A stretch of 64,000 nucleotides of DNA from a virus. The DNA is taken from the IMG/VR virus record IMGVR_UViG_3300045988_160639. One strand, 5' to 3'. How positions within the stretch are numbered: position 1 is the first letter of the stretch; each line of letters opens with the position of its first letter. Positions 2,930-47,794 of this stretch are shown here, piece by piece. The notes below the pieces were generated by a model. It was not told where the DNA came from, did no database searches, and was given only the letters and a program-made list of their open reading frames with translations. The position numbers and the translations under genes were made by a program.

Positions 2930-3355
2930 TCAATTATAAGCAGTGGGCAACAGCTTATCATAAAATTCTGCTATCTTTGTATCAACGTAATCCAATTCTT
3001 CTTTTGCGTGTGCTTTATCAGCACTGGTATTATTAAGCGTTAAATCTTTTCCAATTATATTAGTACGCTTTATTATCCTATCATACTGACGTTCACAATA
3101 ATAACGCTTTATTGTGTAACCAAGTATTTGTATGTATAAATAAGGAAGTGGAATAAGATTTTCATTTTTATCATAATACAAAAATGAATCCGTGCCTTTA
3201 TCAAATACAAGAGGTTCTATTTCCCTTGAAAATTCCTCCACTGCCATACTAAACCATTGAAATACAAGGTCTGAATTAAGTTGAAATTTTTCTTGAAATG
3301 TGGCTTCAAAAACATTAACCACATCTATATATGTAGTGCTTGCTATTCTCACCAC
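2930..3355 (-). CDS. Hypothetical head-tail connector-sized protein
   Basis: 141-aa ORF in the late operon, tightly packed with its neighbours. Confidence 0.55.
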   Translation of the reverse strand: MVRIASTTYIDVVNVFEATFQEKFQLNSDLVFQWFSMAVEEFSREIEPLVFDKGTDSFLYYDKNENLIPLPYLYIQILGYTIKRYYCERQYDRIIKRTNIIGKDLTLNNTSADKAHAKEELDYVDTKIAEFYDKLLPTAYN

Positions 3356-3940: not shown

Positions 3941-4347
3941 AGCATTAAATTTTATAATTTATATTAAAGGTTTGTATCAGAAAGCATACCAATCTGGAAC
4001 TCTCTGCCCTTTGTAACATCAGTTGCACTATATTTTTATTCAACGAGGGACGCTAATCCTCGCCAGTTTTAAACTTCTTTATATTTCTATAAAGGATAGA
4101 CTATATCTTTACCCATTAAGGGCAAGCACCACTTCCATACGCTTGTATGTACTTCCTTACGGAATAGTCGTTGAACTTTACCTTTCGGTCTTAGCTGCTG
4201 ATTATCCATTGTTAAAGTGTTTAGGTTTTAACCTTGCACTATCTATTCAATTTTTTCTACTTTCGTAACATTCACGCTTATACCCTTTAAGGTATTACGT
4301 TGTAGTTTGAATAGTTTTAAGAGTTCCCAGCAATTCAATGCTTATTT
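3941..4347 (-). ncRNA. Candidate structured non-coding RNA downstream of the capsid gene
   Basis: About 400 nt with no credible ORF in an otherwise tightly packed late operon, and locally higher GC. On the minus strand there are several short hairpins capped by GNRA tetraloops (ACC-GAAA-GGT, TTCC-GUAA-GGAA) plus other stems (CGAGG...CCTCG, TACC...GGTA). Confidence 0.3.
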
Positions 4348-5442
4348 TTACGCACATTTTTCAATATACGGAGTCTGCAAAATGTTAAACTCAATATCCA
4401 TACGAGTGAGTACATGACCGGTTGTTATATCATTACCACTGAATGTAGTCAGTCCACCTCTTGTCCAAGACTTAATAGGAGAACCGTACTGACCACCAGT
4501 AGGAACAACAATGGCAAGACCTGCATCGAGCATAGTATCAAAATTATCGCCAGTAGCATTGAGAGAAGAATAATCATAAGGATTTGTCATCTCTGCAAGA
4601 ATAGTTCCGTTATATGCACCGAGAATACCCTTTGTGCGAATATCTCTAAGGTCTTCTGCGGAAATGCCCTGTGTATAACCATATCTGGAAGAATTATATA
4701 CAAATTCAGAGTTATAACCTGCCCAAGGAGTAAACTGCTGAAGAAGTGCATAATCACCAATTACGGTAGCACCTGTGCCAAGTCTTCTTACCTTCTTGAG
4801 AACATCATCAACACCAGCCTTAGTGAGACCTGCACCCTCAAAGAAATACTTTACAGGAGTAGCGTTCTTAACAGCATTGTAAGCATTAGTTACAATAGCC
4901 TTCTTCATCTTATTGATAATATCAATTCTTACCTGATTCTTGCCTTCGTTCTCCTTAGACATATCACCAAGCATAAGTCTGCGGTAATCGGTAGCCCAAC
5001 CGCCAGAAATAGTCTTTGTGCCTACTGCATACTTGTCACCCGTAATTGCAGGGAAAATTACATCAGCGTTAAGTGCCTGCTCACGAGACTTGTCACCAAT
5101 AAACTTCCAAGACTCTACCTCAATAGACTCGTCATATCCAAGAGCTTCAAAATCACCGAATACAGCAAGATTCTGAATTTCTGCGGTAAGAAGAGGCTCA
5201 ACAGAATACTTTCTAATAGTGTTAAGTTCTGCAAGAGACTTAGGATCACCATTAGCAATACCTGCACCAAGTTCCTTGAGTCTATTTACAACAGCGTCTG
5301 TCTTCTTACCGTATTTAGACGTGTCCTTACCATCTGTAAGGGCGGAGAAAATTTCTACAATAGGAGAATTAGGCTTAATCTCATTTGTAAGAGTGACATC
5401 AGAATCACGTCTTACGTTGTTCATTTCAAAAGTCATATCCAT
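4348..5442 (-). CDS. Major capsid protein (HK97-fold type inferred)
   Basis: 364-aa ORF in the canonical portal-scaffold-capsid order. Codon usage looks highly expressed. Confidence 0.6.
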   Translation of the reverse strand: MDMTFEMNNVRRDSDVTLTNEIKPNSPIVEIFSALTDGKDTSKYGKKTDAVVNRLKELGAGIANGDPKSLAELNTIRKYSVEPLLTAEIQNLAVFGDFEALGYDESIEVESWKFIGDKSREQALNADVIFPAITGDKYAVGTKTISGGWATDYRRLMLGDMSKENEGKNQVRIDIINKMKKAIVTNAYNAVKNATPVKYFFEGAGLTKAGVDDVLKKVRRLGTGATVIGDYALLQQFTPWAGYNSEFVYNSSRYGYTQGISAEDLRDIRTKGILGAYNGTILAEMTNPYDYSSLNATGDNFDTMLDAGLAIVVPTGGQYGSPIKSWTRGGLTTFSGNDITTGHVLTRMDIEFNILQTPYIEKCA

Positions 5443-5962: not shown

Positions 5963-7144
5963 TTAGTAAATAGAACCATCATCGTTACCATTCGCAGAAG
6001 TGTCATCTACGTCAGCAAAAATGTCAATTTTCTTAGAGTTCTGTTCTGCAATAATCTTTGCCTTTTCAGCCTCAGAAGCAATAGTAGCCTTGCCAATACC
6101 CTCATAAATCTTAGCGGTAATAGAATTGATTTCGGACTTGATAGGGTCAGCATTAAATGCTTCGATTTCAGCCTTTGCGTACTCCTTCTGTTCATCTGTA
6201 AAATTAGCAAGAGCGGTATTCATTTCAGCAAGTCTCTTCTCTGCCTTCAATGTACCAAGTTCTCTTTCAAGAGCATCTCTTTCTGCATAGAAACCTTCTC
6301 TTTCAGTTTCCATATCCTGAATTGCCTTCTGAAGCTTCTCTATTTTATCAGACAGGTCATTATTTTCGTTTGTCTTGATTTCGAGAGCAGAATTAAGCTC
6401 AGTAATCTTTGACTCAAACTCCTCATTCTTACTATTACACTCAGAAATAGTAGCCTTAATGGAATCTGTAATCATACCAAGTGTTTTTTCGTCCATCGTT
6501 ATGATTTCCTCCTCATTTTTATTATTTTTATTATTCAATTCAAGCAGTGAAGCTGTATGATCTGATGGCTGAACACCACAGCCAAGGAGAGCATATCCAG
6601 AAAATTCAAATTCAGTTGGTATTCTACCAATATCTTTATACCCATACAAATAAACCAATGCAGGATTATTTTCTGTTCTTACAATTTCCACACTGCCGTA
6701 AATTGTTTCATTATTAGACAGCTTTTCAGATAAAAGGTCAATACAATCAGAATATCTCATATAGTCTAATGTACCTTCGCCTACAAAAACTTTTTTAGTT
6801 TCTCCGTCATCATCTGTAACTTCGTCCATATAAGCCTTATCAAAATGACCTATCGTAGTGGCATTACTAAGTAGGGGAACACCATCTTTATATTCTCCTG
6901 TTTCACCGTGACCAAGAATATCTGTTTTGCTATCATCTGTAAATTCAACAGTAACACTTGAACCGATAAGAGTATCCTTTACATTTTCAACATATTCATC
7001 TATCCAAGTGATACCATTATCATTATATTTTGTGCCTGTTTCATCAACAATACAGGATTTATCATAAATTTCAGCAAGAATAAGTTTAAATCTCTTATAA
7101 CCTGTCTTTTTTTCCTGTTTATTGTTAATTTCAAAAAGTTTCAT
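5963..7144 (-). CDS. Scaffolding protein (C-terminal coiled coil), possible N-terminal protease-like domain
   Basis: 393 aa. The C-terminal half is strongly heptad-like and charged (EEFESKITELNSALEIKTNENNDLSDKIEKLQKAIQDMETERE...). Located between portal and capsid. Confidence 0.5.
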   Translation of the reverse strand: MKLFEINNKQEKKTGYKRFKLILAEIYDKSCIVDETGTKYNDNGITWIDEYVENVKDTLIGSSVTVEFTDDSKTDILGHGETGEYKDGVPLLSNATTIGHFDKAYMDEVTDDDGETKKVFVGEGTLDYMRYSDCIDLLSEKLSNNETIYGSVEIVRTENNPALVYLYGYKDIGRIPTEFEFSGYALLGCGVQPSDHTASLLELNNKNNKNEEEIITMDEKTLGMITDSIKATISECNSKNEEFESKITELNSALEIKTNENNDLSDKIEKLQKAIQDMETEREGFYAERDALERELGTLKAEKRLAEMNTALANFTDEQKEYAKAEIEAFNADPIKSEINSITAKIYEGIGKATIASEAEKAKIIAEQNSKKIDIFADVDDTSANGNDDGSIY

Positions 7145-11804: not shown

Positions 11805-12820
11805 TCATCCTTCAAATCCAAACATATCATTTATGACATCTTCATCTTTGTTCTTTAAGTATCCTTGGGTTGTTCCCACGTCTGTATGATGTGCCACTAC
11901 TCGGACGTGATCTAAATCAAACACCTTATTAGTTCCATCTGGATTTTTAAGCCTTTCATCCTGACCGGTAGATAAGCACTCCAAACGAGAATGTCTTATA
12001 CTATGTGGAAATATATTAACTTCTTCACCACGAATTTCAGATAATATCTTTGAGCATTTTAATATACGGTTGTAAAGGGCATCTTTGGTCACTTCCACCT
12101 TATTCTTACCGTGTCCGTTAATCCAAAGGCTTTCAATATCATCATTTCCACGTTCTTCAAGATATTGACGTATTAACTCTTTAGTGTCGTTTAGATAAAC
12201 AAGAGGAAATGTCTTGCCACGCTTTCCTTTAACAATATTTGTCTTGTTTCCATCAAGTAATCCTGCTTTCTTAACTTGGTATATTTCATTTCTTCTACCA
12301 GCAGAATCATAACTTAAACTCCATAAAACTGCTGTCTGTAAATCACCCATTTCAACAAGTTTATCTCTAACTGCTATAAATTCTTTAAACGTAAAGAAAA
12401 ATCGTCATCATTAGTTTTAACTCGTTCCCTCGGAAGACCTTTTACCTTTTTAGCATAATTGACATCATAATTGTATTCATCGTCCTCTTCGCAGTAAGTA
12501 AGCATACTGTTTACGGTCGCTTTAAGCCTATTTACTCTATTTGCCGACATATTACAATCTTCAGAAAGCCAAATACTCATATTTCTGAAATCTTTCTTGC
12601 TCATTTCAAGAATAGATTTATTTTTATGATGAAGTAATACATAAATTAAAATAAACCTTCCATCTTGAAAATAAGCTTCAATCGTAGAATTAGCTTTCTT
12701 TTGCTGTCTATATTCAGCGAGAAAATCTTCAAGTATAGCTTTATTTTCGGGATTTACTTGCTCCCAAAGTTCAGGAGTATAAACCCTATTATAAACACCT
12801 CTACTACGAGCCAATTTCAT
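11805..12820 (-). pseudogene. Tyrosine recombinase/integrase split by a -1 frameshift at a T5 run
   Basis: ORF 12374-12820 is the SAM-like N-terminal domain. ORF 11805-12350 carries AGRRNEI (Arg), HSIRHSR (HxxR) and HHTDVGTTQGYL (His...Tyr). The -1 frame reads continuously (FTFKEFIAVRDKLVEMGDLQ) across the A5 run at 12397-12401 (plus strand). Confidence 0.65.
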
Positions 12821-12944
12821 CCCGTCCTTTCCAACTTTTAAATAATTATTTTCTCAGAACCATTATGGTAGGGTAGAGTTTAACGTCATTCCACCCTCGA
12901 CTGGACGTACCGTTTATTAAAAGAGTGTCGGTATTCACTTCATA

Positions 12945-13020
12945 TGGGTGCGGAAGTTGGCTCTGCCCCAACGACCTCTTGCCTATGAAACAAGCGAGAT
13001 TCTGACTTCTCCATTCCGCA
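12945..13020 (-). tRNA. tRNA with CAU anticodon (Met or Ile2-type), non-canonical T-loop
   Basis: Hand-folded cloverleaf: TGCGGAA TG GAGA AGTCAGAA TCTC G CTTGT TTCATAG GCAAG AGGTC GTTGG GGCAGAG CCAAC TTCCGCA C CCA. The acceptor stem is a perfect 7 bp and CCA is encoded. Confidence 0.7.
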
Positions 13021-13027
13021 ATAAAAA

Positions 13028-13057
13028 GACAGTGAGCTACTATTGCAACCCACCGTC
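13028..13057 (-). terminator. Rho-independent terminator after gene 13075-13461
   Basis: On the minus strand the GACGGTG...CACTGTC stem is followed by TTTTTAT. Confidence 0.55.
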
Positions 13058-13074
13058 TCAATGTTATTATTTAA

Positions 13075-13461
13075 TTATTCTTCAACAGAGAACACCGTTC
13101 CAAGACCATCAAGACACTTATACATATCTGTATTGACATCAGATGCTACATAATAGAAATCTGATTCACTGCCAAGATATCTCTTTGTTTCATCACTCCA
13201 AGCTTTCTCAACCCAGAGTTCAGGAATATTATCGTGCCAAGTGACACTTACATAATATTCGCCACCATAGTCAAAGTCATTATAATCAAGGAGCTGAATA
13301 TCTATATCATCGTCAATGTTCATCATTGCTTTGATAATAGGCTTTGCGATATCACCCTGTACTACTACAGATACATCAATCTTCTGCTTAACATCATCAA
13401 GTATATCACCAACTAACATTTCTGTTGTAGGATATGTATTATGGGACTTTACCTTTAACAT
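13075..13461 (-). CDS. Hypothetical acidic protein
   Basis: 128-aa ORF with an SD-like GGGGG upstream. Confidence 0.55.
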   Translation of the reverse strand: MLKVKSHNTYPTTEMLVGDILDDVKQKIDVSVVVQGDIAKPIIKAMMNIDDDIDIQLLDYNDFDYGGEYYVSVTWHDNIPELWVEKAWSDETKRYLGSESDFYYVASDVNTDMYKCLDGLGTVFSVEE

Positions 13462-28761: not shown

Positions 28762-29028
28762 CATAAAGTGCTTTATCTGCACAAATTAAAAAAATTTTGG
28801 GAGGTTAAAACAATTTTGAATTTGGTGCGTATGCGGTAGCAGAACATTAAACACGTCAGGGCGTGTATAAAAAGGCATTTAGGCTCTGAGCGTTTACGGG
28901 GATTTTTCCCCGTAAGGTATGCACAATAAGCATAACAGCACGGTTAAACGGCTGTAAGCCGTTAGTCTCTCGCAATAGTGGGAGACAGCTAAATAAATAA
29001 AACGTGTATTTGATAGGAGGGTTTTAAA

Positions 29029-29322: not shown

Positions 29323-29428
29323 TTGCAGAGCATTGCAGGCGGTGCAATTCCGCTTGTAATAATGCAGCTTAACGGAAACGTTAAAAGGTTGCAAGCCCTT
29401 AAAAATTGAATTGATGGAGGTTTTAAAT

Positions 29429-32996: not shown

Positions 32997-33110
32997 AAAG
33001 TTGTCCGAGCAGCTATAAACAGTCCATTAAGCTCGGAGCGTTTGGCAGTCTGAGTAAGGCTGTCAAGGTTGGAAAAATCAAAGTAGGAAAGAATATGGAG
33101 GAAATAAATT

Positions 33111-35926: not shown

Positions 35927-36940
35927 ATGGATAAATTTAAAATGTACCAAAAAGGTATCAGCATTAAATCCCTTTACAATATGTACTATGAAGATGTTCC
36001 CGAGGTTGACTTCACGGACGATATGCAGCGTGGAGAGGTGTGGAGTAATACCCGAAAATCTCTCTATATTCATTCAATCTTACTGAAGATTACCGATGCA
36101 CAGTCCCCATTTATTGCAGGTGTAAGGGAACTTCCTAACGGAAATACTCTCCTGAAAATCTTTGACGGAAAGCAAAGAGGAACAACCATAATCCATTATA
36201 TAGACGGAGATTTTGCCCTCACGGGACTGACAAACGAGCCTGATATATACCTCAACGGAGAACCCGTTAAGCTTCAGGGCAAGCGTTTTAAGCAGCTTCC
36301 TCCCAAACTCCAAAGCTGGATACTTGATACAACTCTGAACGTTTCTATAATAGAAAATGCTACACCCGAGCAGGAATCCCTTATTTTTCGCAGACTTAAT
36401 AACGGAAAAACGGTTAGTAAGTTCGATATCGCCCGTTCCTATAAGCAGGGAATGGAAGATATCAAGGAGCTTACCAGCCACGAGCTGTTTAATGTAATGC
36501 TCACCTCAACGGAAAGAAAAGCCCTTAAACAGCAGGAAATCATAATCAGATCGTGGATAGCTCTCTTTGAGGAAGAACCAAACCTCACTCCAGCTCATGT
36601 CAACGAGGTTATGAAAGTCCTCAGTATTGATGCAGACGAAAGGGAACAGCTTAAGTCTTCATATGATTTTATATTTGAAGCATATAAGCTTATGGCAATA
36701 GAGAAGGAAAATTCAGATATCATCAAACTGATGTTTAAACCAACTCATCTTATAGGATATCTGCCTTATCTGGAAAAATTTGATACCCCAGATCAGTTTG
36801 CAAAATGGACTGGAAAATTCTTTGGTAATATGCCCGAAGAATATGCTTCTCTCGTCAGAGAACATACCACAAGCCCCACAAGCATAAAAGCAAGAAGAAA
36901 TATTATAGAAAAATCTATCAATGAATTTCTTGGAAAATAA
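35927..36940 (+). CDS. DUF262/ParB-like protein, paralog 2
   Basis: DMQRGEVWSNTRK, IFDGKQRGTTIIHY and FRRLNNGKTVSKFD. Confidence 0.75.
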   Translation: MDKFKMYQKGISIKSLYNMYYEDVPEVDFTDDMQRGEVWSNTRKSLYIHSILLKITDAQSPFIAGVRELPNGNTLLKIFDGKQRGTTIIHYIDGDFALTGLTNEPDIYLNGEPVKLQGKRFKQLPPKLQSWILDTTLNVSIIENATPEQESLIFRRLNNGKTVSKFDIARSYKQGMEDIKELTSHELFNVMLTSTERKALKQQEIIIRSWIALFEEEPNLTPAHVNEVMKVLSIDADEREQLKSSYDFIFEAYKLMAIEKENSDIIKLMFKPTHLIGYLPYLEKFDTPDQFAKWTGKFFGNMPEEYASLVREHTTSPTSIKARRNIIEKSINEFLGK

Positions 36941-39452: not shown

Positions 39453-40811
39453 ATGGCAAAGACAGCAAAGAAAAAAGATTACAATTCTATTGAAATCAAT
39501 GGAACTGCTTATACCATTGCAGAGCGTGTGAGAGAAGAATCTGATGTGCGGATGATTCCTTATTCAGTAAAAATGTATGTTGAAGAAGTTGACGATGGAG
39601 AGATTTGTCGTGATCCACTTATACAGAGAACGGATGACCAGTGGACAAAAAAGCAGAAGTCTAAGTTGATTGAAGCTGTTTTACATAATAGACCTATCGG
39701 AAGTATGGCACTTGCCAAGGGTAGAGCTGAGAGTAAAAGTTATTCAATCACATCTCTCGTAGATGGATTGCAGAGAACCACAACACTTGTAGACTTTTAT
39801 CACGATAAATTTGCTTTGGATAAAAGAGCATTACCTGTTGTGTGTAGATGTGTTGACGAAAATGGCAATGAACAAAAAGTTGAAATTGATATTGCAGGGA
39901 AAAAATATTCTCAGCTTTCTGATGCGATAAAGACATTCTTTAATAAATATAGTCTTACCACATATATGCACGAGGGCTTTTCTGATGAAGAATTGGACGA
40001 CATTGTATTCTGTATGAATAACGGAAAGTCTCCAAATGCTTATCAGAAAATACGTTTTGCTCTCGGTTCAACAATTATGCGTTCTTTGCAGCCAATTTGT
40101 GATAGCACACTTTGGGAAGATGTTAATGGTTGCAAGGCAAAAAATGACAGTATCCTTTGTTGTATAGTAAGAACTCTTATGATGATGACATTTTACAATT
40201 ATAATAATCTTGGCTCTGCAACGATGACTAAGTTTGTAGATGATTTTGATGATTATGTAAAAGCATCGGATATCGCTAATCTATCTATACTCGTAGAGGA
40301 ACTTGCGGAAATTAAGATGAATCTGTCGGAAGAAGAATCTACAAGATTAGATTCTGTGACTATTCCACATTATATAATGAGTCTTAATTCGTTTAAGAGA
40401 AAGAACAAAACAGCCACTGATTACAGAAACTTTCTCAATAAATTCTGGAGCAGTGATAATTTTGAACTGCTTACATCAAGCTGTGAATCTAATGGTAGCG
40501 GAAGTTCTCTGTATTCTGCTGAAATGGTAGAAGACAGACAGTATGCTATAGATGATTATATGGACGAATATCTTGATGAGAATGAGGGTGAAATAAATGG
40601 CGAAGAAAACGGCACTGACGAAAGCGGAGCAACAGGAAATACTAACAACGGAGATAATGGAACTGAAACAGACATTATCTCAGACGTGTTTGACACTGAA
40701 ATTGTGTCAGAGGATAGTGGAACTGGCAACTCGTCAAGTGGAATTGAATCCGAAGTCAATGAAGATGGAAACGTCCTACAGGGAAGTGGGCAAAGCTTTA
40801 GGTCAGCCTGA
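39453..40811 (+). CDS. DUF262/ParB-like protein, paralog 3, with a long acidic low-complexity tail
   Basis: LIQRTDDQWTKKQK, LVDGLQRTTTLVDF and MNNGKSPNAYQ. The C-terminal ~90 aa is rich in D/E/G/N/S/T. Confidence 0.75.
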   Translation: MAKTAKKKDYNSIEINGTAYTIAERVREESDVRMIPYSVKMYVEEVDDGEICRDPLIQRTDDQWTKKQKSKLIEAVLHNRPIGSMALAKGRAESKSYSITSLVDGLQRTTTLVDFYHDKFALDKRALPVVCRCVDENGNEQKVEIDIAGKKYSQLSDAIKTFFNKYSLTTYMHEGFSDEELDDIVFCMNNGKSPNAYQKIRFALGSTIMRSLQPICDSTLWEDVNGCKAKNDSILCCIVRTLMMMTFYNYNNLGSATMTKFVDDFDDYVKASDIANLSILVEELAEIKMNLSEEESTRLDSVTIPHYIMSLNSFKRKNKTATDYRNFLNKFWSSDNFELLTSSCESNGSGSSLYSAEMVEDRQYAIDDYMDEYLDENEGEINGEENGTDESGATGNTNNGDNGTETDIISDVFDTEIVSEDSGTGNSSSGIESEVNEDGNVLQGSGQSFRSA

Positions 40812-42155: not shown

Positions 42156-42998
42156 ATGAACGCAGCTATAGCTTATAATTCAACAACAGCTAATATCATT
42201 GATATGTCGGGCAGAAAAAGCAGACGTAAGATATCTCAGAGACAAGTTGTTGTTACTGAGGTGGAAGCTCCTACTAATCATTCTGCCGATGCGTTTATGT
42301 GCGAAAATGATATCAACGCTGTTATTCGTCAGTGTTTCAAAGAAAGAGCATATCATAAAATGGTAATGTTCATCTTCGGAATAAACACAGGCTATCGCTG
42401 TGGTGATATTCTTTCGTTTAAAGTAAAAGATGTAACAGATGAAAACGGAAACATTCTTGATGTTAAGTATATTTCTGAGCAGAAAACAGGCAAGGCAAGA
42501 CCTGTGTATTTTAATAGGGCTGTAAAAACGGCTCTTAAATATCTTATTGATCGTAAGGGATTAACTTCTAAAAATTATCTTTTTAGAGGTGATGGAAACC
42601 GTAGAGCATATTTCGATAAATTTATCTATGATAAATGCGGAGAAATTACAGATGTAATTACGACAGGGGAGAGGTACGATGAAAATGGCAATGAAAGAGA
42701 AATTGCTCCTATGACCGTATCGTCAGTGAGCAGATGGCTTAAAACAATAACACAAAAACTTAACATAGTGGGACATTATAGTTCTCACGCTATGCGAAAA
42801 ACTTTCTGTGAGTTTATCTCACGGAATTGGAATGATAATAGGAATGTAATGGTTGCTTGTGTGGCTGTAGCTCACGCCGATGTTGATACAACAATGAATC
42901 ATTATATGACGGTAAATCCATTGAAACTTCGTCAAAAATGGCTTGACCTTAATCTTGGACTGGAAGAATTTGAAAAGCTGTCTGGATATAAAATTTGA
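42156..42998 (+). CDS. Tyrosine recombinase
   Basis: NTGYRCGDIL (Arg), HYSSHAMRKTF (HxxR) and AHADVDTTMNHY (His...Tyr). Confidence 0.75.
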   Translation: MNAAIAYNSTTANIIDMSGRKSRRKISQRQVVVTEVEAPTNHSADAFMCENDINAVIRQCFKERAYHKMVMFIFGINTGYRCGDILSFKVKDVTDENGNILDVKYISEQKTGKARPVYFNRAVKTALKYLIDRKGLTSKNYLFRGDGNRRAYFDKFIYDKCGEITDVITTGERYDENGNEREIAPMTVSSVSRWLKTITQKLNIVGHYSSHAMRKTFCEFISRNWNDNRNVMVACVAVAHADVDTTMNHYMTVNPLKLRQKWLDLNLGLEEFEKLSGYKI

Positions 42999-45386: not shown

Positions 45387-45812
45387 ATGATTGCTAATAG
45401 CTCAACTGATTTTAGACATTATGATAATAAGTATCATTCAACTGTGATGGAATATCACCGTGGCGATATTGTCTGGGTCGATTTTGGAAATACGGTCGGC
45501 TCAGAACAAGGTGATATCCGTCCAGCCGTAATAATACAAAATGAAGTAGGAAATAAACACTCACCATGCCTTATAGTGGCTATCATGACCAGTAAGGAGA
45601 AAAAGCCAATGGTAACGCACGTAAGTATAAATCCATCTGTAGAGACCGGATTAACAAAGCCTACTACTGTAATGACAGAACAGATAAGAACTATTGATAA
45701 GAGCCGAGTTCTGAGCTGGGCAGGAAAGCTTGGTGAAAGAATGATGACTTGTATTGATAGAGCCATCGCTGCAAGCTTTGGTCTGGAAAATAATTCTGCG
45801 TATTCTGTATAA
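45387..45812 (+). CDS. mazF: MazF/PemK-family endoribonuclease toxin
   Basis: GDIVWVDFGNTVGSEQGDIRPAVIIQNEVGNKHSPCLIVAIMTS...TVMTEQIRTIDKSR. Confidence 0.8.
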   Translation: MIANSSTDFRHYDNKYHSTVMEYHRGDIVWVDFGNTVGSEQGDIRPAVIIQNEVGNKHSPCLIVAIMTSKEKKPMVTHVSINPSVETGLTKPTTVMTEQIRTIDKSRVLSWAGKLGERMMTCIDRAIAASFGLENNSAYSV

Positions 45813-46849: not shown

Positions 46850-47005
46850 GAGAAATATGGAAGTGAAAATCACTTCCAATACATAAAGCAAAGCAAATAA
46901 TAAAATATTTGCAAAAGCACTTGACAAGTGCAGGGTTATCGAGTATAATATATATGTAGTCAAATGATAAGCAAGTAATAAGATTTAGTATCAAAATAAA
47001 TATAT

Positions 47006-47080
47006 TTGGGATTAGTATAATGAGAAGTACATCAGCCTTTGACACTGATAGTTTCGGGGCAGAGCCGAAATCCCAAACCA
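47006..47080 (+). tRNA. tRNA-Gln (anticodon UUG), non-canonical T-loop
   Basis: TTGGGAT TA GTAT AATGAGAA GTAC A TCAGC CTTTGAC ACTGA TAGT TTCGG GGCAGAG CCGAA ATCCCAA A CCA. Confidence 0.65.
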
Positions 47081-47150
47081 AATGTTAGTTTTATTCTGGC
47101 ATAGCCTCCCTACGGTTTCTCTGACTTCCGTATAAAAAAGTCAGGAATAA

Positions 47151-47224
47151 GCACCATTAGTTCAATAGTAGAACAAACGACTTTTAATCGTTAAACATCG
47201 GGGCAGAACCGATATGGTGTACCA
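47151..47224 (+). tRNA. tRNA-Lys (anticodon UUU), non-canonical T-loop
   Basis: GCACCAT TA GTTC AATAGTA GAAC A AACGA CTTTTAA TCGTT AAAC ATCGG GGCAGAA CCGAT ATGGTGT A CCA. Confidence 0.7.
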
Positions 47225-47474: not shown

Positions 47475-47551
47475 CTCCCAATAGTCCAATCGGCAGAGAC
47501 ACAGAACTTAAAATTCTGACAGTGTGGATTCGAGTTCCACTTGGGAGACCA
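47475..47551 (+). tRNA. tRNA with anticodon UAA (Leu codon UUA) but a short variable arm
   Basis: CTCCCAA TA GTC CAATCGGCAGA GAC A CAGAA CTTAAAA TTCTG ACAGT GTGGA TTCGAGT TCCAC TTGGGAG A CCA. The T-loop is canonical. Confidence 0.65.
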
Positions 47552-47709: not shown

Positions 47710-47794
47710 GCTCCTATGGTGGAATTGCAAGACACGCTTGACTCAAAATCAAGTACCGAAAGGTGTGACGGTTGGAATCCGTCTGGGAGTACCA
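47710..47794 (+). tRNA. tRNA-Leu (anticodon CAA), type II with a long variable arm
   Basis: GCTCCTA TG GTG GAATTGCAAGA CAC G CTTGA CTCAAAA TCAAG TACCGAAAGGTGT GACGG TTGGAAT CCGTC TGGGAGT A CCA. Confidence 0.65.

Follow-up and report, generated by a model that had tools for sequence, protein, structure and literature searches.

Phage tRNAs with a probably functional, compensated elbow: GGCAGAR T-loops opposite A18-G19 D-loops

Three transfer RNA (tRNA) genes in a 64,000-nucleotide stretch of phage DNA (IMG/VR record IMGVR_UViG_3300045988_160639; the whole stretch is referred to here as the window) very probably encode functional tRNAs with a compensated, modification-independent elbow, judging by their sequences. 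The genes have the anticodons CAU, UUG (Gln) and UUU (Lys). Their T-loops read GGCAGAG or GGCAGAA (together, GGCAGAR), and their D-loops (AGUCAGAA, AAUGAGAA and the 7-nt AAUAGUA, respectively) contain no GG, but AG at positions 18-19 in each case. An initial annotation of the window had described these loops and the three cloverleaves with encoded CCA, and all of this is borne out; the CAU gene lies on the minus strand, which that annotation left unstated. The nucleotides concerned (U54, U55, C56, A58 and G18-G19) are among the most conserved in biology; bacterial tRNAs generally carry U54-U55, and tRNA finders, modification maps and textbook structures all rest on this set. The broader reading adopted here, moderately probable when taken as a whole, is that the three tRNAs are genuine and functional, with an elbow compensated in the manner of rRNA or riboswitch T-loops, and that the benefit would be independence from host factors that read the TΨC/GG elbow.

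Of the consensus U54-U55-C56-R57-A58 in the T-loop and G18-G19 in the D-loop, the variants keep only C56, R57 and G19. The G18·Ψ55 contact is exchanged for A18·G55 and T54·A58 for G54·G58; as A18-G19 is present in each variant D-loop, G19 can still pair with the retained C56. The initial annotation read the changes in the two loops as coordinated, which stands. Its further statement, that both partners of the interaction are lost, does not: G19-C56 is kept, A18/G55 and G54/G58 covary, and in a fourth tRNA of the window, Leu-CAA, the 19-56 pair is inverted. In the mechanism proposed here, the Lys-UUU, Gln-UUG and CAU tRNAs would be ordinary translation adaptors in which concerted substitutions (U54·A58 to G54·G58; U55 to G55 together with G18 to A18) have remodelled the docking of the D-loop on the T-loop. 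The outer pair G19-C56 would be left untouched; its flat face is the surface on which RNase P, T-box RNAs and the L1 stalk of the ribosome stack (PMC4810234). This would amount to a shift from the tRNA-type UUCRA loop, where a G intercalates, to the GGNAG/YGNRA type, where an adenosine does so. The tRNAs would thereby become independent of, or invisible to, host factors reading the TΨC/GG elbow, and cassette exchange driven by homing endonucleases would keep variant and canonical alleles circulating.

The case for these contacts comes from covariation. A loop-agnostic covariance model (A1 and R1) was built from 60 variant and canonical phage tRNAs and searched on the 120 loci of the first of two IMG/VR scans (described below) and on three contigs of metagenome-assembled genomes (MAGs) from a scan of cellular genomes. 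It yields 285 distinct, well-parsed type-I tRNAs among the matches listed, a scope that holds for all counts in this paragraph. With T-loops classed by nucleotides 54-55-56 and 58, class UUC.A goes with GG in 185 of 185 tRNAs, while AG occupies 18-19 in 40 of 40 members of class GGC.G and in 17 of 17 of class UGC.A. In class UUU.A, which has U56, GA occurs in all 14 listed D-loops, and 12 of these are without GG. Class UUG.A is accompanied by GC at 18-19, UUA.A by GU, UGA.A by AU, GGU.G by AA and AGG.U by AC; classes AUC.U and GUC.G keep GG. It follows from this table that three tertiary contacts covary independently: 18·55 changes from G·U to A·G, 19-56 undergoes Watson-Crick swaps, and 54·58 changes from U·A to A·U or G·G, both of which vary independently of 18·55. 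The loci were picked by search-pattern match, about a third of them via a variant tRNA, so the frequencies of the other variants are not population estimates, and the tRNA sequences are mutually related, so the counts are not independent events. In the 285 phage tRNAs, position 18 covaries strongly with 55, and 19 with 56, which argues that the D-loop/T-loop contacts exist. Members of class GGC.G that were found without a search constraint also include the loops GGCGGAG, GGCAGCA, GGCGGUA, GGCAGGA and GGCAGUA; this variety delimits the core as G54-G55-C56-R57-G58.

The Leu-CAA tRNA carries a different solution. As the initial annotation had noted, its T-loop has G56 and its D-loop is without GG. 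The D-loop reads AAUUGCAAGA (..UUGCAAG..); G18-C19 stands opposite G56, which inverts the 19-56 pair from G-C to C-G. The same type of combination (UUGAAAU with a ..GC.. D-loop) is found in 3 of 3 other phage UUG.A tRNAs among the matches listed, and a near-identical Leu-CAA gene is present in two relatives of the window, L029 and L252. In phage T5, tRNA-Ile1(GAU) (3214-3287, minus strand) has the T-loop UUUAAAU and the D-loop AGCGAUCUA, corresponding to an A19-U56 pair; every other T5 tRNA has a canonical elbow.

The general T-loop motif consists of five nucleotides closed by a non-canonical 1·5 pair, with U or G at position 2, a purine at position 4 followed by two bulged nucleotides, and a base from another part of the RNA inserted between positions 4 and 5. 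Outside tRNA, T-loops follow the consensus YGNRA; their position 2 is G, the intercalating base is nearly always an adenosine, and the T-loop GGAAG is known from rRNA (bioRxiv 10.1101/2022.12.26.521914). By sequence, GGCAG(AR) resembles the rRNA-type GGAAG, UGCRA fits YGNRA, and the invariant A18 matches the intercalating adenosine. G55 would then be equivalent to the position-2 G of both the FMN and cobalamin riboswitch YGNRA loops and rRNA GGAAG, and G54·G58 to the G residues at positions 1 and 5 of the latter. We infer that UGCRA/A18 and GGCAG/A18 are generic T-loop solutions placed in a tRNA. Unlike the variants, the riboswitch and rRNA T-loops dock on receptors within the riboswitch or rRNA rather than on a tRNA D-loop, and the likeness is one of sequence alone.

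The class is widespread among phages. Two scans of IMG/VR, one with the pattern GGGGCAGAGCC-N11-CCA and one with a GAACC version, both of which forced G52-G53 and CCA, gave at least 120 loci each, and 240 loci were examined. A full cloverleaf is present in 83 of the 240 among the matches listed, which is also the scope of the counts for the class that follow here and in later paragraphs. The scans, the window genes and the relatives together provide at least 81 distinct GGCAGAR tRNAs with 22 anticodons, on contigs that span widely differing G+C contents. AG stands at 18-19 in every one of the 81, and any GG in their D-loops follows an A. Each of the 21 stem pairs is formed in 72-81 of the 81 tRNAs, with 4-6 pair types at variable positions, whereas shuffled sequences average 32-54 at most positions; since a majority of these pairs is demanded by the parser, part of the signal stems from that selection. 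U8, A14, A21, U33 and R37 are present in most members (U33 in 72 of 81, R37 in 77 of 81), together with G53-C61. Anticodons include those for Ala, Gly, Pro, Val, Asn, Asp, Thr, Trp, His, Phe and Ser, and Lys-UUU is found only in the phage lineage of the window.

This distribution bears on two proposals of the initial annotation. A lineage-specific elbow is contradicted by the occurrence of the same loop in phages of very different G+C content and with 22 anticodons, and a survey of related phages finds it in sister and unrelated phages alike. The supposed link to isoacceptors that are targets of anticodon nucleases likewise fails, as the class extends to Ala, Gly, Pro, Val and the other specificities listed above. 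When the joined 3' halves of variants were compared by blast with cultured phages, a design that sees identical T-stems only, no GGCAGAG tRNA was obtained; the matches were chance ones inside protein genes, and a minihelix in Erythrobacter phage XM05 (PV416404.1). This minihelix (GGAG..GCGGG-GGCAGAG-CCCGC-CGGCUCC-ACCA, 1780-1815) comprises an acceptor/T-arm with the variant loop, and has neither a D-arm nor an anticodon arm. It follows a promoter-like site and a region (20-1700) with at least 11 tRNA genes, for which the GenBank record has no tRNA annotation.

Features that are read by aminoacyl-tRNA synthetases agree with the anticodons across the class. G3·U70 and A73 are present in 10 of 10 Ala members, U73 and G1-C72 in 6 of 6 Gly members, and C1-G72 with A73 in 4 of 4 Pro members; Asn members have G73 (4 of 4), His has C73, and Ser has a long arm and G73. 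Most CAU members resemble initiator tRNAs in their C3-G70 and in a 1-72 pair that is mismatched or weak. By established identity rules, the variants would be expected to be charged like their canonical counterparts. For the window, expression and use of the variants are plausible in view of a putative promoter that matches the consensus in 12 of 12 positions (Table 1) and of codon usage: AAA (56 per 1000) is among the commonest codons, and AUA (27 per 1000) exceeds AUG. The CAU gene itself has initiator-like acceptor and D stems (U1-A72, G2-C71, C3-G70, A11-U24), together with discriminator C73 and only one G-C at 29-31/39-41, where the initiator type has A73 and three G-C pairs. From its sequence it may be a tRNA for Met, fMet or Ile2; with AUA codons as frequent as they are, a role as Ile2 after lysidine modification is equally possible.

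Sister phages carry different alleles in the same slots. A search with the 128-aa protein gene that neighbours the CAU tRNA yielded ten loci (L293-L302). Their aligned flanks share 85-98% identity with the window, except for short stretches of 100%. A CAU tRNA lies downstream of this gene in all ten, at a distance of 58 nt in most and about 240 nt in two. Seven of the ten orthologues are called tRNA-Met by ARAGORN; Rfam, run on three CAU-slot loci, gives two of these seven 60 and 43 bits. The full variant (T-loop GGCAGAG, D-loop AGUCAGAA) fills the slot in the window, L293, L294 and L295, an intermediate (UGCAAAU, AACAGGA) in L297 and L301, and a canonical tRNA (UUCAAGU, AAUGGUA) in L296, L298, L299, L300 and L302. 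At the tRNA array, where the relatives L015, L025, L029 and L252 have 75-97% nucleotide identity, the Gln slot holds identical or near-identical variant genes in the window, L015, L025 and L029, and a canonical one in L252. In the Lys slot, the window and L252 share one variant gene; L015 and L029 each have a canonical gene there, and these two differ. Variant and canonical tRNAs with the same anticodon thus occur in the same slot, and therefore the two forms substitute for each other. On an unrelated contig, L027, a CAU gene has the acceptor, D-stem, variable and T-arm sequences of the window gene; its anticodon stem is rewritten relative to the latter, with compensatory changes at pairs 28-42 and 29-41. 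The Gln tRNA has a C31·A39 mismatch in the window and in the identical gene of L015, and U31·G39 in L025 and L029.

Several further observations concern these slots. In L029, an open reading frame for an HNH/AP2-type homing endonuclease (~2925-2185, minus strand) lies between the Gln and Lys tRNA genes. The hairpin CTGACTTCCGTATAAAAAAGTCAG precedes the Lys slot in the window (Table 1), L015 (~6333-6355) and L029 (~2140-2118, minus strand); it is kept in all relatives though the Lys genes behind it differ, and may act in processing, as part of a promoter or as the target of a homing endonuclease. ROOL RNA (RF03087, 315-327 bits) adjoins the CAU tRNA both in sisters, L293 (3703-4273) and L299 (3793-4365), and in unrelated phages, L027 (9117-9698) and L040 (2870-3473). 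In L293 and L299 it sits between the CAU tRNA and the recombinase gene, and in L040 it is followed, after 28 nt, by a GGCAGAG CAU tRNA; the window is without ROOL, owing to a clean indel of ~590 nt at ~12842-12852. ROOL and GOLLD have been found near tRNA islands (PMC12286853), and ROOL with an initiator-like CAU tRNA may form a recurrent module.

Table 1. Features of the window that are discussed in the text (1-based positions; cloverleaf segments run 5' to 3').
Feature	Position	Strand	Details
CAU tRNA, encoded CCA	13020->12945	-	GGCAGAG T-loop 12967-12961; A18 13003; G19 13002; cloverleaf UGCGGAA UG GAGA AGUCAGAA UCUC G CUUGU UUCAUAG GCAAG AGGUC GUUGG GGCAGAG CCAAC UUCCGCA C CCA
Gln-UUG tRNA, encoded CCA	47006-47080	+	GGCAGAG T-loop 47058-47064; A18 47023; G19 47024; cloverleaf UUGGGAU UA GUAU AAUGAGAA GUAC A UCAGC CUUUGAC ACUGA UAGU UUCGG GGCAGAG CCGAA AUCCCAA A CCA
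Lys-UUU tRNA, encoded CCA	47151-47224	+	GGCAGAA T-loop 47202-47208; A18 47167; G19 47168; cloverleaf GCACCAU UA GUUC AAUAGUA GAAC A AACGA CUUUUAA UCGUU AAAC AUCGG GGCAGAA CCGAU AUGGUGU A CCA
Leu-UAA tRNA (by anticodon)	47475-47551	+	found by ARAGORN; Rfam 55.7 bits; encoded CCA; A73; missed by the initial annotation
Leu-CAA tRNA, long variable arm	47710-47794	+	found by ARAGORN; Rfam 47.9 bits; T-loop UUGGAAU (G56)
Putative promoter TTGACA-17-TATAAT	46921-46949	+	12/12 consensus; 57 nt upstream of Gln tRNA
Hairpin CTGACTTCCGTATAAAAAAGTCAG	47121-47144		ahead of Lys slot
Hairpin, 15 pairs and U run	13026-13059	-	ends 5 nt before nucleotide 1 of CAU tRNA
Gene for 128-aa protein	13075-13461		upstream of CAU tRNA
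Weak promoter-like site	13103-13074		
Split tyrosine recombinase (N-terminal SAM-like and catalytic open reading frames)	11805-12350, 12374-12820	-	directly downstream of CAU tRNA
Second integrase-family gene, intact	42156-42998	+	
PemK/MazF-type endoribonuclease toxin gene	45387-45812	+	Pfam 103.9 bits; two genes upstream of tRNA array
Group I intron	4077-4397	-	Rfam 69.3 bits, full-length model match; late-gene module
Pistol ribozymes (two)	28851-28922, 32999-33073	+	67.5 and 55.6 bits
Twister-P5 ribozyme	29324-29400	+	39.6 bits
Proteins with GmrSD_N (DUF262-type) restriction-endonuclease N-terminal domain (two)	35927-36940, 39453-40811	+	early region

The hexamers of the putative promoter recur at the matching place in L015 and L029, and the site appears to be placed to drive the tRNA array. 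The hairpin that ends shortly before the CAU tRNA is probably a terminator or processing hairpin of the gene for the 128-aa protein upstream; if it acts as a terminator, the CAU tRNA would be transcribed by read-through or from the weak promoter-like site. The Leu-UAA tRNA has a canonical elbow (T-loop UUCGAGU, D-loop with GG) and serves as an internal comparator within the same array. Its variable region is 5 nt, compared with the long arm of bacterial tRNA-Leu, and many 'Leu' tRNAs lacking such an arm occur in other phage arrays.

As to whether the variants are tRNA genes at all, the window contains 19 GGCAGAR heptamers on its two strands, and a perfect 5-bp stem closes exactly three, namely those of the CAU, Gln and Lys genes. 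All three have the T-arm form NNNGG-GGCAGAR-CCNNN, and stems of 7/4/5/5 bp with a 7-nt anticodon loop that contains U33 and R37, parsed by eye and confirmed by model alignment. Against the Rfam tRNA model (RF00005; gathering score 29 bits), Lys scores 55.4 and Gln 39.3 bits, both above the gathering score, and several GGCAGAR CAU tRNAs elsewhere pass with 42-55 bits; under R1, the CAU gene, which is in the training set, scores 64.1 bits and Gln 55.9. The parser accepts 14 of 23,000 shuffled-flank controls (0.06%), compared with the 83 of 240 pattern matches listed from phage contigs, which excludes chance. The Lys cloverleaf is the minimum-free-energy fold (z = -3.78). MAFFT misplaces short D-loops, and alignment-free D-loop counts and parsed segments were used instead.

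Some results count against this assignment, or against the elbow as proposed, and the check by covariance models that the initial annotation had suggested is accordingly mixed. The CAU gene is unreported by the Rfam tRNA model even at E≤10, so that orthology is relied on for this gene. ARAGORN, whose search depends on the T-loop consensus, detects the two Leu tRNAs only and misses every variant, whether run with default or with relaxed settings; its relaxed thresholds add false positives only. The training set of R1 included two of the three window variants. Single-sequence folding yields a cloverleaf for Lys only among the variants; the canonical Leu-UAA fails as well, and such folding is therefore non-discriminating. 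The geometries of A18·G55 and G54·G58, finally, are drawn by analogy. That the variants are chance stem-loops produced by hand folding would explain why ARAGORN misses all three and Rfam the CAU gene. With two of the three passing Rfam, so low a parser rate on shuffled controls, and orthologues conserved with compensatory changes, this explanation is effectively refuted.

A host trait, in which the loop would merely copy that of host tRNAs (for instance, with the CAU gene as an attP copy beside a tyrosine recombinase), can be set against a like-for-like comparison with the CAU-type pattern CTCATAA-N12-13-GGGGCAGAGCC. In IMG/VR this gives 19 loci, 18 of which are cloverleaf tRNAs; in 596 Gb of sequence from 185,579 species genomes it gives 51 loci, of which only 3 are tRNAs. 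The initial annotation's view of a viral rather than a cellular trait is thus upheld. The three lie in dense tRNA arrays, on MAG contigs that measure 3.5-11.6 kb, and PHROG annotation of these contigs was uninformative on phage versus host origin. About 10 of the 51 cellular matches are random, and 38 come from an unrelated repeat, present in many copies in a single Planctomycetota MAG (VGYR01). This repeat is at least 95 nt long and no tRNA, and fits the search pattern by chance; it is found on 38 contigs, within a few hundred bases of their ends, and probably represents an insertion sequence or an assembly-breaking repeat. The split recombinase directly downstream of the CAU tRNA and the binning of three GGCAGAG CAU tRNAs into bacterial MAGs would suit a host origin. 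Set against this are the scarcity of matches among the species genomes, all of them on short contigs, the lack of an integrase beside the Lys and Gln variants, and the canonical or UGC-type CAU tRNAs of sisters with the same recombinase; a host trait is very improbable. It is also improbable, if less extremely so, that the variants are non-translational tRNA-like RNAs, acting as decoys or sponges for defence proteins or as handles for processing by RNase P or RNase Z, for example of ROOL. The ROOL neighbourhood of the CAU family at four loci and the reported association with tRNA islands are in line with such a role, as are the bare XM05 minihelix with the same loop and, in the window CAU gene, the odd C73, the unusual anticodon loop UUCAUAG and the failure to match Rfam. 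The decoy idea, which the initial annotation had also raised, is disfavoured because identity elements fit the anticodons and isoacceptors interchange with canonical ones in the sisters. The U33 and R37 counts point the same way, the window keeps its CAU gene without ROOL, and Lys and Gln belong to an ordinary promoter-driven tRNA array. A decoy or processing-handle role is unlikely, with some small probability for the CAU family, which is often found beside ROOL.

If the variants are working adaptors, the question is what favours their elbow. Lacking U54, U55 and G18, they cannot carry m5U54, Ψ55 or Gm18 and have no U54-U55 step, which is chemically certain; resistance to modification at the TrmA/TrmFO, TruB and TrmH sites follows from this chemistry. 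Cash, a type III CRISPR-associated Schlafen protein, cuts tRNAs 5' of U55, single mutations of U54 or U55 abolish its cleavage, and whether it targets phage tRNAs was left open by its authors (PMC13462974). Cash requires nucleotides that the variants lack, so escape is a concrete possible benefit, and by analogy resistance to nucleases that cut at U54/U55 is plausible. Nuclease escape as the selective driver is nevertheless put forward only tentatively, and the stronger proposal, that GGCAGAR/A18 and its relative UGCRA/A18 are a virus-specific architecture selected to escape immunity that cuts or marks the TΨC loop (for example, T-loop nucleases of the Schlafen/Cash or CDI type), is rather doubtful. 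Much of the evidence speaks against escape. Large phage arrays usually have 1-3 GGC.G members among 8-23 tRNAs, and with so few variants per array a broad T-loop nuclease would still destroy host and other phage tRNAs; the window itself keeps a canonical Leu-UAA. In a comparison of neighbourhoods of 77 variant and 166 control loci, enrichment is confined to homing endonucleases of the HNH and GIY-YIG families, and no tRNA-modifying, tRNA-repair or nuclease gene co-occurs with the variants. As for the host of this phage, no search for a T-loop nuclease was made there, and none is known. The variant/canonical polymorphism fits neutral turnover and an arms race equally well.

The main rival is accordingly neutral compensated drift, under which relaxed constraint and fast turnover would have produced GGCAGAR/A18 as a near-isosteric solution of no advantage, spread by recombination and homing-endonuclease cassettes. 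It accounts for the many other elbow alleles in the same arrays (UGC.A, UUU.A, UUG.A, AGC.U, AUC.U, UCC.A), for variants being a minority in each array, for sisters that carry either allele with no other visible difference, for the mutational intermediates (UGC.A with A18; GUC.G with GG), for homing endonucleases as sole enriched neighbours and for the single A19-U56 tRNA of T5. Three observations fit it less well. The elbow is nearly absent from the 596 Gb of cellular genomes though apparently functional, which suggests a factor acting against it in cells or for it in phages; the same set of four substitutions turns up with 22 anticodons and at very different G+C contents; and between the window and L027 it is stably inherited while the anticodon stem is fully rewritten with compensation. 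Drift is on balance less probable than not, though a serious possibility.

Compared with canonical tRNAs (RF00005), the variants share the cloverleaf, G53-C61, G19-C56, encoded CCA and identity elements, and differ in having G54, G55, G58 and A18 for U54, U55, A58 and G18. Like those of phage T5, they occur in promoter-driven arrays with homing endonucleases. Phage tRNAs that escape defence have reportedly been described in T5 (tRNA-Lys versus PARIS), for tRNA-Tyr versus the retron-Eco7 PtuAB/Septu system, and as anticodon-loop variants in mycobacteriophages. There, too, phage isoacceptors differ from those of the host at the site a nuclease reads, turnover is fast and homing endonucleases are present; in contrast, those cases concern the anticodon or variable loop of one isoacceptor, whereas here it is the elbow of many isoacceptors and the nuclease partner is hypothetical. 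T-loop tRNases such as Cash, which act at the U54-U55 step that the variants lack, are candidate adversaries rather than relatives; Burkholderia CdiA-CT(E479) is another T-loop-cleaving tRNase. Degenerate T-loops that depart from TΨC/GG are also known from metazoan mitochondrial tRNAs and staphylococcal cell-wall tRNA-Gly; in these the D/T interaction is eroded or the tRNA is specialised for use off the ribosome, whereas the partners in the variants covary precisely. No description of phage tRNAs with G54-G55 and A18 was found in the open-access literature.

The window is a segment of a phage genome with 33% G+C, and encodes a terminase, a DnaB-type helicase and a family-A-like DNA polymerase. 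Late genes occupy the minus strand to ~25.5 kb, and early genes the plus strand thereafter. The polymerase is ~49% identical to counterparts in Paenibacillus, Staphylococcus and Bacillus siphophages, which makes a Firmicute the probable host; GenBank phages gave no match when the tRNA region was compared with them by megablast. The three self-cleaving ribozymes of Table 1 lie within 4.3 kb amid small early genes. For the PemK/MazF-type toxin gene, no recognisable antitoxin partner was identified. The toxin was considered as a cutter of host tRNAs that the variants would resist, and this was rejected: the toxin region is conserved in sisters with either tRNA allele, and the Leu-UAA tRNA of the phage itself has a canonical elbow.

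For phage tRNA biology in general, the class provides a natural covariation record for the 18·55, 19-56 and 54·58 contacts, and ties the tRNA elbow to the rules of riboswitch and rRNA T-loops. It also means that phage tRNAs are under-counted by common tools, as the GGCAGAR class is missed wholly by ARAGORN and partly by Rfam. The variants are ready test substrates for a question raised in 2026, whether phage tRNAs escape immune nucleases that cleave the T-loop, and as scaffolds independent of T-loop modification they could serve in orthogonal or therapeutic tRNAs. Should the escape reading be true, they would be the first phage tRNAs to evade defence through a tertiary-structure motif rather than the anticodon loop, and the polymorphism of variant and canonical alleles in sister phages would be the footprint of an arms race. 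Should the variation be neutral, it would still mark how much freedom the elbow has.

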